Notes under the pieces: model-generated
Database searches by the model: none
What the model saw: only the letters and a program-made list of their open reading frames with translations
What the model was told of the DNA's origin: nothing
Made by a program: the position numbers and the translations under genes
From: an uncultured Bacteroidales bacterium
GTDB taxonomy: Bacteria > Bacteroidota > Bacteroidia > Bacteroidales > VadinHA17
Assembly: GCA_963809855.1 (NCBI GenBank)
Contig: CAWELF010000001.1
Coordinates: 1,573,446 to 1,613,445 of the forward strand
Direction of reading: 5' to 3'
DNA length: 40,000 nt
Shown here: one piece after another, positions 15,469-22,205 of the stretch
Layout of the letters: every line of letters starts with the position of its first letter
How positions within the stretch are numbered: the stretch's first letter is position 1

Positions 15469-17342
15469 TAGGTAAGGGGGAGTTACACCCCCAAACCTCT
15501 CACGGAACCGTACGTGATACTCTCGCATCATACGGCTCTTGTTACACAAAAGATTAAGCGGTTTGGAATACATACTGCCAGTGAACAAACAGACCCGGAT
15601 AGCACTTTGCAAGATTCCTGATCCAATCACCAGCTTTGTTCATACTCCGATGAAACCTCTTATACTTTCTTGCCGCCCACAGAATCAGCCGGTAGTGAAA
15701 GATCCGGAAAATTCTCATCAACTTATGAATCCTGAACCGACCATAGTAATTAATCCATCCTCGGATTTTAGGGTTAAACTCCTTTGCAATCCAATAGATA
15801 TCTTTACCAGACCAGCGCTGAAACATAGATTTTCTAAACTCTTCCACAATCTTATTCTCACTCTTTCGGCTAATAGCACAATCGTAACCCAGGAACATTT
15901 CACCATTTTTGTTCGATGTTGAACGTGGTTGAAAACTGAAGCCCAGAAAGTCAAATTTTACTGTCTTAAATTTATCCTTACGGTTATCTTTCTTACAGTA
16001 AACAATCTTGGTCTTCTTTTCATTAAGCTCTAACCTGGACTTCCTTAGCCTATCACGTATGGCATTCAATACGCCTTCTGCTTCCGTTTGGCTGTTGCAG
16101 TGAACTACTATATCATCTGCATACCTCACAAAGCTTAAGGCTGGATAATTAATCTCAAGCCATCTGTCAAGGGCATAGTGTAGGAACAGGTTAGCCAGAA
16201 GGGGGCTTATTACCCCTCCTTGAGGCGTTCCTTTACCATCCCGCAAGTGTTGGTTTCCTTTGCGATCTTCAATAGGTGCCTGAAGCCATCTTGTTATGTA
16301 CATCTTCACCCATTTTTCTTGTACATGTCTTTCGAGAGCTTTTAAAAGTAGCTCATGAGACATGTTGTCAAAGAAACCGGATATGTCCATGTCGATTACC
16401 CAATGGTAGCGTCGCACGTTCTTGCGAACCTGCTCAACTGCCTGATGGGCATCCTTTAGTGGTCGATACCCGTAAGACTTCAAAGAGAACACTGCTTCGA
16501 GTCTTGGCTCAAGGTAGCTCGTAATGACTTGTTGAGCCACCCTGTCCCCGACTGTCGGAATGCCTAGCTTTCGCTTTCTTCCATCATCCTTGGGGATTTC
16601 TACTTCAAGCACCGGAGGAGGGAAGTAACTGCCGGAACTCATCCGATTCCATAGCATGTACAGATTGTCTTGAAGACGTTCCTCGTACATTTCGATGGTC
16701 TCATCATCTATCCCTGCTGCTCCTTTGTTGCTCCGTACTTTCTTGAAGGCTTCCCATACCATTCTTTTGGCAATAGGTATACTTTTCGTCTCGGCTCCGC
16801 TACACCTCCCCCCTTTTGGGGTTGCTAGTGGTAACCTCAACTGTGTAACCTCAGCCCTTCGCTCCACTCCCATTACAGGAGCTTCAACACTACTATGACT
16901 GAGTCCGATTTCATACAAATCATCGGTATTTAGCCTCACAGGTGTTTCCCCTGCTTGTGCCTTTCCCTTTCCATTTTTGTATGACCTCCCTTGTTCCATA
17001 ACTAAGCCTGAATAGACCTCATGCCTCCTCTATGACGCCAGCCGTGTAGCCAGTAAGCAGGTATCCGCTACACTCCTCCCCCGGCATCATGGACCGTTGG
17101 GTTTTGACTGGATGTTCGTTTTCACGGCACCTCATCAGAGGTTCACTTTCGTTCATCTTTTCTATTCTTACCTAATCCTTTCGACAGGACTTTTTCCCCA
17201 TTCCGTTCAATACCTCCCAGTCACCCGGAAAGCACCGTGGGGCGGTTTGCAGGAATCGCCTGTACGACACCTGCGGAGGGCCAACCTCCATCTTAATTAC
17301 AGCATCGACATCGGTCTCTCGATCGTTGTCGGCAAGGCACAC
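15469..17342 (-). mobile_element. Group II intron (~1.87 kb), boundaries +/- 5 nt
   Basis: Minus-strand 5' end reads GTGTGCCTTGCCG at 17342. Domain V, GAGCCGTATGATGCGAGAGTATCACGTACGGTTC, is at 15538-15505. The domain VI hairpin GGGGGTGTAACTCCCCCTTACCTAC ends near 15469. The RT/maturase ORF sits in domain IV. Confidence 0.85.
15554..16999 (-). CDS. Group II intron reverse transcriptase/maturase
   Basis: 481-aa ORF with RT motifs GTPQGGVISPLLANLFL and FVRYADDIVVHC, followed by a maturase-like region. No HNH endonuclease domain is recognisable after it. Confidence 0.9.
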   Translation of the reverse strand: MEQGRSYKNGKGKAQAGETPVRLNTDDLYEIGLSHSSVEAPVMGVERRAEVTQLRLPLATPKGGRCSGAETKSIPIAKRMVWEAFKKVRSNKGAAGIDDETIEMYEERLQDNLYMLWNRMSSGSYFPPPVLEVEIPKDDGRKRKLGIPTVGDRVAQQVITSYLEPRLEAVFSLKSYGYRPLKDAHQAVEQVRKNVRRYHWVIDMDISGFFDNMSHELLLKALERHVQEKWVKMYITRWLQAPIEDRKGNQHLRDGKGTPQGGVISPLLANLFLHYALDRWLEINYPALSFVRYADDIVVHCNSQTEAEGVLNAIRDRLRKSRLELNEKKTKIVYCKKDNRKDKFKTVKFDFLGFSFQPRSTSNKNGEMFLGYDCAISRKSENKIVEEFRKSMFQRWSGKDIYWIAKEFNPKIRGWINYYGRFRIHKLMRIFRIFHYRLILWAARKYKRFHRSMNKAGDWIRNLAKCYPGLFVHWQYVFQTA

Positions 17343-17352
17343 CATAGCAGCT

Positions 17353-17696
17353 AACGGCTCGGTGGTATGGTTAGGTGCCGTCTGTGTCAGGGTTGGCAAG
17401 TTTTTTGCCAGTCACGGTAAACGGACGCAAGTTGTCTGGTCACGGTAAAAGCCGATTACGTATGAGTCCCGGTAATGAAAACGCCATTTACTTGTCACGG
17501 TGCATTTTATAAACGGAGAGCAAAAAACGCTGCCAACTGCGCGTCGGCCTGCAGCCCTATTGACTTTGTCTCGGGTGCAGGATGAGTCAGGGTACACCAA
17601 ATTTAATAAGAGAAATGAAATTTGGAGCATAGACTTATGTAGCTGATTACGAATGTGTCCGGGCTGCAGAAGGCACTTAACTATACCATCCGTGTT
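17353..17696 (+). repeat. Structured repeat copy C
   Basis: Full-length alignment with the other copies. Starts 10 nt from the intron 5' end. Confidence 0.9.
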
Positions 17697-17860
17697 ATAT
17701 TTAGGCAAGTATTAAAATTGTCTCGGTTGTAAAATTTGTCATGTTTAATTGAATGTATCTGAAATCGAAGGTGCGAAATGTTTGCTTTTAAAGTCCCGGT
17801 CTCAGAAAAGTGCAATTTAAGGTCCTGATAAGTTTGTAAATAAGTAATAAGCTGAGTTCA

Positions 17861-18433
17861 TTAAAATTGATCAACATTCTTGTTGTTCTTGTTCTTTTCT
17901 ACTATGTCATAAAGAGATGTCGATTGATAGATAAGGTTAATAGCGGGTATTTTATTAATTTCTACTGATATTGCATTTGTTAAGACCCACACGGTGCTTA
18001 TATCGGTATATCCACCTTTAACTGCCATTACAAAATCATCATCTCCATCTTTATAAGGGTATCTGAAATTTCTTGTTTCTTCCCCTCTCCCATATTTAGT
18101 CGTAATTATTTGACATATTTCGTTGTATTTACTCTGAATATCTTCATCATCAACGATATAATATGCCCCGATTTCGAATAATTTATTATCAACGAATTTC
18201 GCAATTACAAGTGAAGCAATTGTTGATCCTATCTTTACTTCATTATAGTTAATTCCGAAACCATAAGATTGTGATGTTCTAGACTTAAAAGTACCATATT
18301 TATTCAATACAGCTTTAAAGTCCGTCTCATTCATGCCGAATGTCAAACCTAAAGGCGGTGTAATTATTTTCTCTTGAGCAAAAATCATAGAGGAAACAAA
18401 AACAAGAAGACTAATAATTAATGCTTTTTTCAT
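17861..18433 (-). CDS. Secreted hypothetical protein
   Basis: 190-aa ORF with signal peptide MKKALIISLLVFVSSMIFAQ. Confidence 0.65.
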   Translation of the reverse strand: MKKALIISLLVFVSSMIFAQEKIITPPLGLTFGMNETDFKAVLNKYGTFKSRTSQSYGFGINYNEVKIGSTIASLVIAKFVDNKLFEIGAYYIVDDEDIQSKYNEICQIITTKYGRGEETRNFRYPYKDGDDDFVMAVKGGYTDISTVWVLTNAISVEINKIPAINLIYQSTSLYDIVEKNKNNKNVDQF

Positions 18434-18608
18434 AATTAATTGGATTAGAGTTAAACGATAAGATATTTAAGTTTTGTTTGAAATTGTTGTCAGATCTGTT
18501 CAACTTTTGCTTTGCTTTATACTCATTTTAGTATCAAACAAATGTTGAAAGTTATATTTAGGCAAATCAAAGTTGAATCTTTAGTCACGGCCCACATTGC
18601 TTAAATAT

Positions 18609-20578: not shown

Positions 20579-20712
20579 AATGTTTCTTTACAACGAAACT
20601 TAATATTGATTTTTTATTCTTGAATCGTTATGTTTAGACGATATTTGTCTAGATGGAACTAACTGGTTGTCAAGACGAAACTGTCAAGAAATATTTTTAA
20701 TCGTTTAAACAT

Positions 20713-21055
20713 AACGGCTCGGTGGTATAGTTAGGTGCCGTCTGTGTCGGGGTTGGCGAGTTTTTTGCCAGTCCCGGCAGGTGGCGCGAAGTTGTCTGAT
20801 CACGGTAAAAGCCGATTACGTATGAGTCCCGGTAATGAAAGCGCCATTTACTTGTCACGGTACATTTTATAGACGGATAGCAAAAAACGCTGCCAACTGC
20901 GCGTCGGCCTGCAGCCCTATTGAGTTTGTCTCGGCAGCAGGATAAGTCAGGGTACACCAATTTAATAAGTGAAATGAAGTTTGGAGCATAGATGTAAATA
21001 GCTGATTACGAATGTGTCCGGGCTGCAGAAGGCACTTAACTATACCATCCGTGTT
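20713..21055 (+). repeat. Structured repeat copy F
   Basis: Full-length alignment with the other copies. Confidence 0.9.
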
Positions 21056-21538
21056 AACAATAGTACTATATTAAAATCCCTACCGATCTAAAGTCCCGGT
21101 AAACGGACGGATGATTCTTGTCAAGGTAAAATTGTCTTACGTAATAGTCCCGGTAAACGGCCGAAAACCCAAACGTCAAAAAGAGATTTTCTAGGTTGCC
21201 GTTAACAATAGTGCGCCCTTGCAAATGACTGGTTGTCAAGAAGTAATTTACTAACCAAGGATCATTTGCAAGGCCCCAGCGTCGGCATAAAAAATTGGCC
21301 AGGTTGTGTTTCGCGGTACAAGATTTATAGGAATGGTAAATTGTCTCGGTAGTGTTAATTTGTTAACAGGACGTGGCGCGAGAGCCAATTTTTTATACGT
21401 GCGCAGGCAGGAGGATTCGGCTGGCATTTTGTGTGTCGCGGTATAATTAATAAACGGACGATAATTGTCTTGTCACGGTAAACTATATTACTTGTAGTGC
21501 GGGTAGCCGAATGGTCTGAGTTTCTGCGTATTATTGTT

Positions 21539-21882
21539 AACGGCTCGGTGGTATGGTTAGGTGCCGTCTGTGTCGGGGTTGGCGAGTTTTTTGCCAGTCC
21601 CGGTAAGTGGACGAAAGTTATCTGGTCACGGTAAAAGCCGATTACGTATGAGTCCCGGTAATGAAAACGCAAGTTACTTGTCAAGGTGCATTTTATAGAC
21701 GGAGAGCAAAAAACGCTGCCAACTGCGCGTCGGCCTGCAGCCCCATTGACTTTGTCTCGGCAGCAGGATGAGTCAGGGCACACCAAATTTAATAAGTGAA
21801 TTGAAGTTTCGAGCATAGACTTATGTAGCTGATTACGAATGTGTCCGGGCTGCAGAAGGCAATTAACTATACCATCCGTGTT
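21539..21882 (+). repeat. Structured repeat copy G (last copy in the window)
   Basis: Full-length alignment with the other copies. Confidence 0.9.
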
Positions 21883-22205
21883 AGCTGCTGGGCTATTTTA
21901 AAGTTGTCTCGGTTGAAGAAATTGTCACATATGCAGCATTTTAAAAGTCCCGGTAAAAGAAACGGATTTGTCATGATGAATAAATTTTCTAAACGGTGAA
22001 AAAGCATTTCGGGAAAACTTAGAAATTTGGGATGAAGCTGGGCTGGTACATTTAATAAGCGTTTTGGCAATGTTAATCGAAATTTTCATGCTCTAGAAAG
22101 CTTATTAAAAGTACCAGTGAGTTGCACTAAATCCCACCCCGGAAATGGGGCGGGATAGTTTTGTGTTTTCCATATTAATTTTATTTCCACTAACAATTTA
22201 AAATT

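Follow-up and report, generated by a model that had tools for sequence, protein, structure and literature searches.

The attC sites at which integrons recombine their cassettes are ∼57–141 nt long and variable in sequence, and it is by their structure, as modelled in the attC covariance model of IntegronFinder, and not by their sequence that they are recognized. They have parasites of their own, the group IIC-attC introns and the IS1111-attC elements. A different arrangement is found in the pdif modules of Acinetobacter plasmids, which have 28-bp duplex sites in alternating orientation. The integron integrase uses its I2 domain to read extrahelical bases of the folded attC site (PMC7790495), and the capacity of integrons for single-strand recombination is attributed to a single innovation, the I2 helix of IntI (PMC7790495). 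In CTXphi-type elements, host Xer recombinases act on folded single-stranded phage DNA (PMC7790495). Here we analyse a 40,000-nt stretch of a Bacteroidales genome (GCA_963809855.1, contig CAWELF010000001.1, positions 1,573,446–1,613,445, forward strand), termed the window, to whose positions all coordinates given without a locus refer. It contains seven copies of a repeat, R, that separate short gene-containing segments. We interpret R together with its variable flanks as the attC-analogue recombination site of an integron-like gene-capture system of Bacteroidales, and we put the probability of this reading at about 0.7.

The arrays resemble those of integrons in that they consist of mostly single, co-oriented cargo genes, often unannotatable or of toxin–antitoxin type, each followed by a site that is an imperfect palindrome with AAC and GTT at its ends. 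In the window all seven copies of R (343–344 nt) are on the plus strand, each beginning with AACGGC and finishing with CCGTGTT, and all open reading frames (ORFs) in the segments between them are on the minus strand (Table 1). Among 36 aligned copies R is 342–350 nt long and 67–95% identical, and AAC and GTT are invariant. R is not a coding sequence, as the ORFs that run across it (for example 17412–17708) are disrupted by 1–2-nt indels between copies. R was found in Bacteroidales metagenome-assembled genomes (MAGs) in a scan of one genome per species, with copies spread over >110 kb of chromosome OY970276.1. A local nhmmer profile served as the model of R. A metagenome scan found R in at least 120 contigs, all JGI metagenome records, and it was not found in the viral contigs searched. 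Arrays of >100 kb are a further likeness to integrons, especially the sedentary chromosomal ones.

The sequence 3′ of GTT is denoted here as Y and that 5′ of AAC as Y′, with a lower-case letter for the cassette (Ya, Y′a). A first-pass annotation of the window had noticed that the 3′ flank of each copy of R is the reverse complement of the 5′ flank of the next copy, with a fixed and strand-specific G·T wobble at the eighth position from the repeat. The flank strings that it quoted are all present in the window at the places given. In each of junctions A>B, C>D, D>E, E>F and F>G, seven Watson–Crick pairs are followed by a G (3′ flank)·T (5′ flank) pair at position 8 and by 3–4 further pairs. The 3′ flank of copy B represents a second class, with six pairs, a bulged T, one pair and then G·T, and a matching partner for this flank occurs in loci L094 and L106. 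Copy B is the exception to the position-8 G that is present in the other six of the seven copies.

The rule was evaluated beyond the window with 131 non-redundant junctions from Bacteroidales MAGs and from wetland and sediment metagenomes. The ∼12 nt 3′ of GTT in repeat N pair with the ∼12 nt 5′ of AAC in repeat N+1, and 119 of the 131 junctions obey the rule: 93 show the window pattern, 26 show the bulge pattern (the bulged base is T in 24 of them), and 12 conform to neither. The base 8 nt 5′ of AAC is T in every one of the 131 junctions. It faces G directly in 102 and past the 1-nt bulge in 26, and the reversed arrangement, T·G, does not occur. The mean number of Watson–Crick pairs over the first 11 positions is 8.85, compared with 4.37 when partners are shuffled (s.d. 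0.13, maximum 4.69). A total of 65 distinct 7-mers are used, and among cassettes with a common 7-mer, positions 9–12 differ and their partners change in step, which is co-variation. Hence, the tabulation of flanks and the comparison with shuffled partners that the first-pass annotation had proposed place the complementarity well above control, the G·T at position 8 is as fixed and strand-specific as it had claimed, and the flank-pairing observation is confirmed and general.

The boundaries of the mobile unit were revealed by identical cassettes that occur in different neighbourhoods. In such cases identity ends at the AAC(GGC) of the downstream R and the upstream R travels with the cassette. 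In two pairs (L013 859–1124 with L013 4482–4747, and L005 1539–2262 with L013 1468–2191) the cassettes are 97–100% identical and the upstream R copies 91–99.7% identical, compared with 65–78% for the downstream R copies, and in the first pair identity begins exactly at the upstream AAC. Cassette f is shared by the window and OY970276.1 (L011), where it is next to a different downstream R. These two sequences are unrelated 5′ of the AAC of the upstream R, 88–91% identical over the first half of that R, and 100% identical from mid-R through GTT, cassette f, Y′ and the AACGGC of the next R, after which the R copies are 72% identical. The flank 5′ of the co-inherited R differs in all four informative pairs. 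The identity tracts of shared cassettes, together with the co-inherited upstream R, therefore define a unit of R plus cargo that is broken at the 5′ AAC. On the plus strand this mobile unit is R-GTT-Y-cargo-Y′-AAC, which reads TT-y′-ORF-y-AAC-R-G on the coding strand. The point of exchange coincides with the 5′ AAC of R or is no more than a few nt away from it. Read on the coding strand this AAC is G|TT, and whatever follows GTT is part of the next cassette, both as in integrons. With a crossover at the 5′ AAC, only in the circle are Y and its own Y′ neighbours. The cassette-junction logic that had been proposed for the window is thus borne out by shared cassettes in new neighbourhoods, whose identity breaks at the AAC edge of the repeat, and by the recombinase and attI-like heads of arrays elsewhere that are described below. 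In some MAGs a housekeeping gene directly adjoins a truncated or terminal R (yidC in L003, 3703–3970; the transaldolase gene in L010), suggesting that the ends of arrays occupy fixed chromosomal positions.

R has a conserved plus-strand fold. In the 36-copy alignment a terminal stem of ∼22 pairs opens into a three-way junction, and 98.2% of cells are paired compared with 29–44% when the partners are slid. Compensatory changes are present in 15 pairs (10.0±1.4 in shuffled alignments, 15 being reached in none of 500) and the covariation score is 0.234 (0.117 shuffled, 0.234 being reached in none of 500). The fold contains about eight conserved G·U or U·G pairs, some of which are invariant or nearly so (for example, columns 23:346, 30:207 and 36:201). 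Since these pairs and the G·T of the flanks become A·C mismatches on the minus strand, the plus strand is favoured as the folding strand. The RNA folding energy of R is −123 kcal/mol for the plus strand and −101 kcal/mol for the minus strand, with a fold z-score of −4.1. DNA parameters were applied to R with its flanks as in an excised circle (Y′_N+R_N+Y_N), giving −64 to −70 kcal/mol for the plus strand, with 11–12 flank pairs formed, and −51 to −57 kcal/mol for the minus strand. In the context of the array, where the flanks are unmatched, the plus strand gives −57 to −61 kcal/mol. The choice of the plus strand in the first-pass annotation is therefore supported computationally by the G·U/G·T asymmetry, the covariation and both sets of energies. 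This probable folding strand is antisense to all cassette ORFs, like the recombinogenic bottom strand of attC. Unlike attC, R is 344 nt long, is conserved in sequence and forms a three-way junction, and its paired ‘R box’, which includes the invariant G·T, reaches 11–12 bp into cassette-specific sequence. The middle of R is made up of four tandem ∼28-nt units, each beginning with GTCNCGGTA. This motif occurs 29 times between positions 5644 and 21955 of the window, compared with an expectation of 0.28, and 28 of the 29 occurrences are on the plus strand. It is also found outside R, at some cassette ends and throughout the ORF-less cassette f, and free-standing R-like modules are present inside cassettes.

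Covariation and G·U pairs would suit an RNA equally well, as would the z-score of the fold. R might accordingly be a structured non-coding RNA antisense to the cassettes, serving as an insulator, processing signal or regulator, with pairing at the RNA level and mobility that is incidental. We consider this quite improbable. Rfam 15 at its gathering threshold gave no match on R, the only matches in the window being to two group II intron models, and Y and Y′ are separated by 0.1–5 kb of sequence antisense to the cargo. Moreover, identity between genomes breaks exactly at AAC and arrays are headed by a recombinase and an attI-like GTT junction. R may nevertheless have an RNA role in addition to its DNA role.

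The head of an array was first seen in L124, in which the last cassette ends in Y′-AAC and is followed by ∼93 nt and a recombinase gene in place of R. Homologues of this recombinase constitute a family of ∼387-aa Xer-like tyrosine recombinases. All seven contexts examined have the same layout of a recombinase gene, an attI-like segment and co-oriented cassettes separated by R (the recombinase-containing contexts are L124, L138–140, L141, L142–144, L145 and L146). The recombinases outside L124 are 66–93% identical to that of L124, and L142–144 has seven copies of R within 10 kb. The attI-like segment is ∼95 nt long and conserved, lies 3′ of the recombinase stop codon and ends in ...GTATAAAGGA-GTT, beyond which the sequence is cassette-specific. 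In L141 and L124 the bases after this GTT pair with those before the AAC of the first R, again with G·T at position 8. Hence, the attI arrangement of integrons, with a site beside the integrase at which the first cassette starts, is seen in these related loci and not in the window. In being headed by a tyrosine recombinase and a conserved attI-like site, the arrays resemble those of integrons; they differ in that the recombinase gene and the cassettes have the same orientation. L141 (contig_60475, 85.7 kb) has the recombinase, the attI-like site and one cassette with its R on a contig with genes for Rep3, ParA and a coupling protein like TraG, and the system may also travel on plasmids or conjugative elements.

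The nearest relatives of the 387-aa recombinase with solved structures are XerA, VchIntIA (IntI4) and XerD. Its alignment to XerA is unbroken and that to VchIntIA (2a3v) falls into two parts separated by 33 residues, compared with 75 in IntI, so the IntI-specific insertion is absent. Unlike integron integrases, the recombinase lacks I2 and scores below the NCBIfam integron-integrase cut-offs (TIGR02249, 182–196 bits, cut-off 265; PRK15417, 112–129 bits, cut-off 435), and it has an extra N-terminal domain of ∼110 aa. Catalytic residues of the R-K-H-R-H-Y type occupy invariant columns in 32 homologues. Residues 1–70 of the N-terminal region are predicted to form a beta-rich domain with a predicted local distance difference test (pLDDT) score of ∼80–86. 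No Pfam family matched this region, and a single-sequence model of the domain (pLDDT 56.6) was too poor for a structure search. A structure search with the model of the full-length protein returned only Xer, IntI and lambda integrases.

An Xer-like recombinase without the I2 insertion, with an extra N-terminal domain as in arm-binding integrases, could also carry out conventional double-stranded recombination. R would then be a large attP-like site in which the four tandem GTCNCGGTA units are arm-type repeats and both strands are exchanged near AAC, and the symmetry of the stem and the complementarity of the flanks would be inverted repeats for protein binding that do not fold. We regard this as unlikely, since 7–11 flank positions vary between cassettes yet stay complementary, which a protein that reads a fixed sequence cannot explain. 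In addition, the conserved G·U pairs and the never-reversed G·T are asymmetric between the strands in a way that would have no meaning in duplex DNA.

Cassettes frequently contain a second copy of GTT followed by Y. It is present in 52 of 131 cassettes (40%; control expectation 2.35), usually 54–63 nt before the next AAC, and forms a local hairpin of 55–90 nt (hairpin H) immediately 5′ of the next R. Cassette d contains three to four copies of Yd. One idea is that, while still in the array, the cleavage site regains a matched duplex through hairpin H. GTT-Y...Y′-AAC hairpins were rejected as independent sites as they occur only directly upstream of R.

We propose that the recombinase would act on the folded plus (bottom) strand. 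In the excised circle, Y′ and Y would flank the same R and extend its terminal stem by AAC:GTT and ∼11 bp that include the invariant G·T, a closure worth ∼8 kcal/mol in the DNA model. The G·T, in some cases with the bulged T, may identify the strand to be used and delimit the recombinase footprint on its outer side, thereby taking the role of the extrahelical bases in attC. Copies of R resident in arrays, with their unmatched flanks, would be poorer substrates, and a substrate would be fully formed only in free circles or in lone sites of the copy A type. The extra N-terminal domain of the recombinase may bind the tandem GTCNCGGTA units as its arm-type sites. A more tentative proposal, and one that we consider possible but on balance doubtful, is that this is an independently evolved ‘second integron’, in which an Xer-like recombinase without I2 acts on a folded single-stranded scaffold of 344 nt with arm-type repeats, a 7–11-bp ‘address’ stem particular to each cassette and the invariant G·T. 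The address would be matched only in the circle or via hairpin H, and would license circles for integration and keep array sites weak. If true, such an address would be a directionality or stability device beyond those of canonical integrons.

Several points weigh against the proposal that R is the site of a gene-capture system. The recombinase is without the I2 insertion with which integron integrases recognize the folded attC site, and the folding of a single strand is argued from sequence asymmetry and calculated energies. The contexts with a recombinase were identified from the homologues of one seed, L124 (66–100% identity), and do not amount to an unbiased census, and the 40 kb of the window hold no such recombinase. 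The 12 non-fitting junctions depart from the pairing rule, the identity tract of the cassette f pair begins inside R and not at AAC, and the second Y copies and hairpin H are left unexplained by the model.

The first-pass annotation had also suggested that copies C to G close into a cycle, and this is real, as Yg (3′ of copy G) and Y′g (5′ of copy C) form pairs at nine of their ten positions, among them the G·T at position 8. The cycle fits a resident lone site, Y′g-AAC-R_G-GTT-Yg, at whose AAC cassettes were inserted one after another. Copy A, the two flanks of which are complementary to each other, is a lone-type site of that kind. At the B>C junction the expected Y′b is missing and the group II intron separates the second Yb copy from Y′g, giving a chimeric junction with Yb-type sequence on one side of the intron and Y′g on the other. 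Of the block insertion or rearrangement that had been suggested between B and C, the absence of a partner for copy B holds and coincides with the intron, and the event itself is a reasonable though unproven reading. Recombination between copies of the intron is a possible cause of the gap. In cassette a, the last ∼340 nt (9130–9464) are duplicated at high identity upstream of copy A (5440–5786). The duplicated segment is non-coding and contains GTCGCGGTA motifs and inverted repeats of its own, and each copy terminates in Y′a.

As in integrons, the sites attract group II introns and insertions of the IS110/IS1111 type. The group II intron of the window is ∼10 nt from the coding-strand GTT adjoining copy C, recalling the introns that parasitize integrons. 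Elements of the IS110 family interrupt R at fixed positions, as integron parasites do. They are found after position ∼336 in L014 (3233–4616) and L008 (minus strand, ∼1–335), and near position 40 in L078 (392–1780). The R copies of L014 and L008 start with GAC instead of AAC and have a common 5′ flank, ...TTAGACAGTCT. Copy B is divided in two by an IS21-family insertion, and a homologue of IstA is located beside an R array in L054.

The IS91-family element near copy G is assigned by NF033538 (442 bits, cut-off 125) and by the Pfam families Y2_Tnp and Zn_Tnp_IS91. The IS91 family is characterized by a Y2 HUH transposase, upstream of which a tyrosine recombinase is encoded in some members. The Xer-like recombinase that it encodes was rejected as the integrase of the array, as it is part of a 2.4-kb IS91-family unit that is found in genomes without R. 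The same two-gene unit with the same ends is present in L015–L017 without any R, and most homologues of the recombinase are on contigs of 2.4–3.2 kb. Other recombinases were not found in the window or in L001–L014. The array of the window is an integrase-less array that was later invaded by IS21, the IS91-family element, IS110 and the group II intron. The left end of the IS91-family element, GTT-GCACTAAATCC, looks like a cassette end, and its right end, ...ACT-GTT-AG, is joined directly to another copy of Yg (24541–24554). A related element in L126 (336–2415) abuts the AAC of an R exactly, and the IS91-family element may use the G|TT sites of the array. These two elements, one 238 bp from copy G and the other in contact with R, could be taken together with the terminal inverted repeats and many copies of R to mean that R itself is a non-autonomous transposable element, either like a miniature inverted-repeat transposable element or mobilized by IS91, that inserts into palindromic targets. 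We find this highly improbable, given that the flanks of the same copy of R are not complementary and show no target duplication (they differ and are not direct repeats), that the IS91-family element occurs elsewhere without R, and that R and its cargo move as one. Defence-type genes occupy a neighbourhood to the right of the array (32402–39967) and encode an AAA ATPase (32402–33388), the R subunit of a type I restriction system (33462–36674) and GmrSD-like proteins (36682–38931 and 38915–39967).

Table 1. Repeat copies, cassettes, hairpins and inserted elements in the 40,000-nt window.
Feature	Position	Strand	Details
R copy A	5787–6129	+	Flanks Y′a 5778–5786 and Ya 6130–6138
Cassette a	6130–9464	−	ORFs 7030–7305, 7361–8065 and 8160–8927
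R copy B, 5′ part	9465–9622	+	Y′a 9456–9464 pairs with Ya 6130–6138
IS21-family element	9623–12164	+	IstA 9822–10997, IstB 11317–12045; inside copy B; apparent 7-bp duplication CATTATA
R copy B, 3′ part	12165–12357	+	Followed by Yb 12358–12370 (bulge class)
Cargo 3′ of copy B	12358–15462	−	Four ORFs; second GTT+Yb copy 15384–15399
Group II intron	15463–17342	−	Reverse transcriptase ORF 15554–16999; ∼10 nt from coding-strand GTT adjoining copy C
R copy C	17353–17696	+	5′ flank Y′g 17343–17352, pairs with Yg 21883–21892; 3′ flank Yc 17697–17708
Cargo ORF, cassette c	17861–18433	−	190 aa, no family match
Hairpin H, cassette c	18551–18611	+	Second GTT+Yc, loop, Y′c-AAC
R copy D	18609–18951	+	5′ flank Y′c 18597–18608; 3′ flank Yd 18952–18963
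Cargo ORF, cassette d	19063–19254	−	63 aa
Hairpin H, cassette d	19444–19501	+	Further GTT/ATT+Yd copies at 19282 and 19049
R copy E	19499–19842	+	5′ flank Y′d 19487–19498; 3′ flank Ye 19843–19853
Cargo, cassette e	19890–20578	−	Gp49-like toxin 20225–20578 and helix-turn-helix antitoxin 19890–20213
Hairpin H, cassette e	20627–20715	+	
R copy F	20713–21055	+	5′ flank Y′e 20702–20712; 3′ flank Yf 21056–21066
Cassette f	21056–21538	+	No ORF; made of R-like GTCNCGGTA modules
R copy G	21539–21882	+	5′ flank Y′f 21528–21538; 3′ flank Yg 21883–21892
IS91-family element	22120–24545	+	Tyrosine recombinase 22206–23120 and Y2 transposase 23117–24280 (overlapping); 238 bp from copy G
IS110-family transposase gene	24975–25973		Just beyond the window array

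Measured against the features by which integrons are defined, the system has the AAC and GTT boundaries and the G|TT crossover, whereas it lacks the I2 insertion of IntI and the size of attC, R being judged here by its length (342–350 nt compared with ∼57–141 nt). It is a real integron-like system that fails the tests defining membership of the integrons. With CTXphi-type elements it shares an Xer-type recombinase without I2 that is proposed to act on a hairpin of one strand, and mismatches that define which strand is usable. However, in those elements the recombinase is the XerCD of the host, the core is dif-like and 28 bp long, and a whole phage is integrated at dif, in contrast to the dedicated recombinase, multi-cassette arrays and 344-nt sites described here. 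The 28-bp core of Xer/dif systems in general has a central region of 6–8 bp and two arms that bind Xer. Like pdif modules, the cassettes are gene modules bounded by Xer-type recombination sites, but pdif modules have neither a large structured element nor complementarity between the flanks of sites N and N+1. The full-text literature on integron-like arrays, attC and IS91 recombinases, in which most subscription journals were outside coverage, contained no description of the system, and the literature on ‘MrpR’ concerned only an unrelated phage repressor. The integron-like system is apparently undescribed so far.

Tools that are keyed to IntI and to attC sites of ∼60–140 nt presumably miss the system. 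Its cassette-specific paired flanks and fixed mismatch suggest a programmable, structure-specific recombination site, with a possible use in engineering. If our interpretation is correct, a cassette platform based on an Xer-like recombinase without I2 would represent a second evolutionary route to single-strand recombination and would directly test what the reading of a folded site requires. It would also be a large unannotated reservoir of mobile genes, with arrays of >100 kb and at least 120 metagenome contigs, in the Bacteroidales of soils, peat and sediments.

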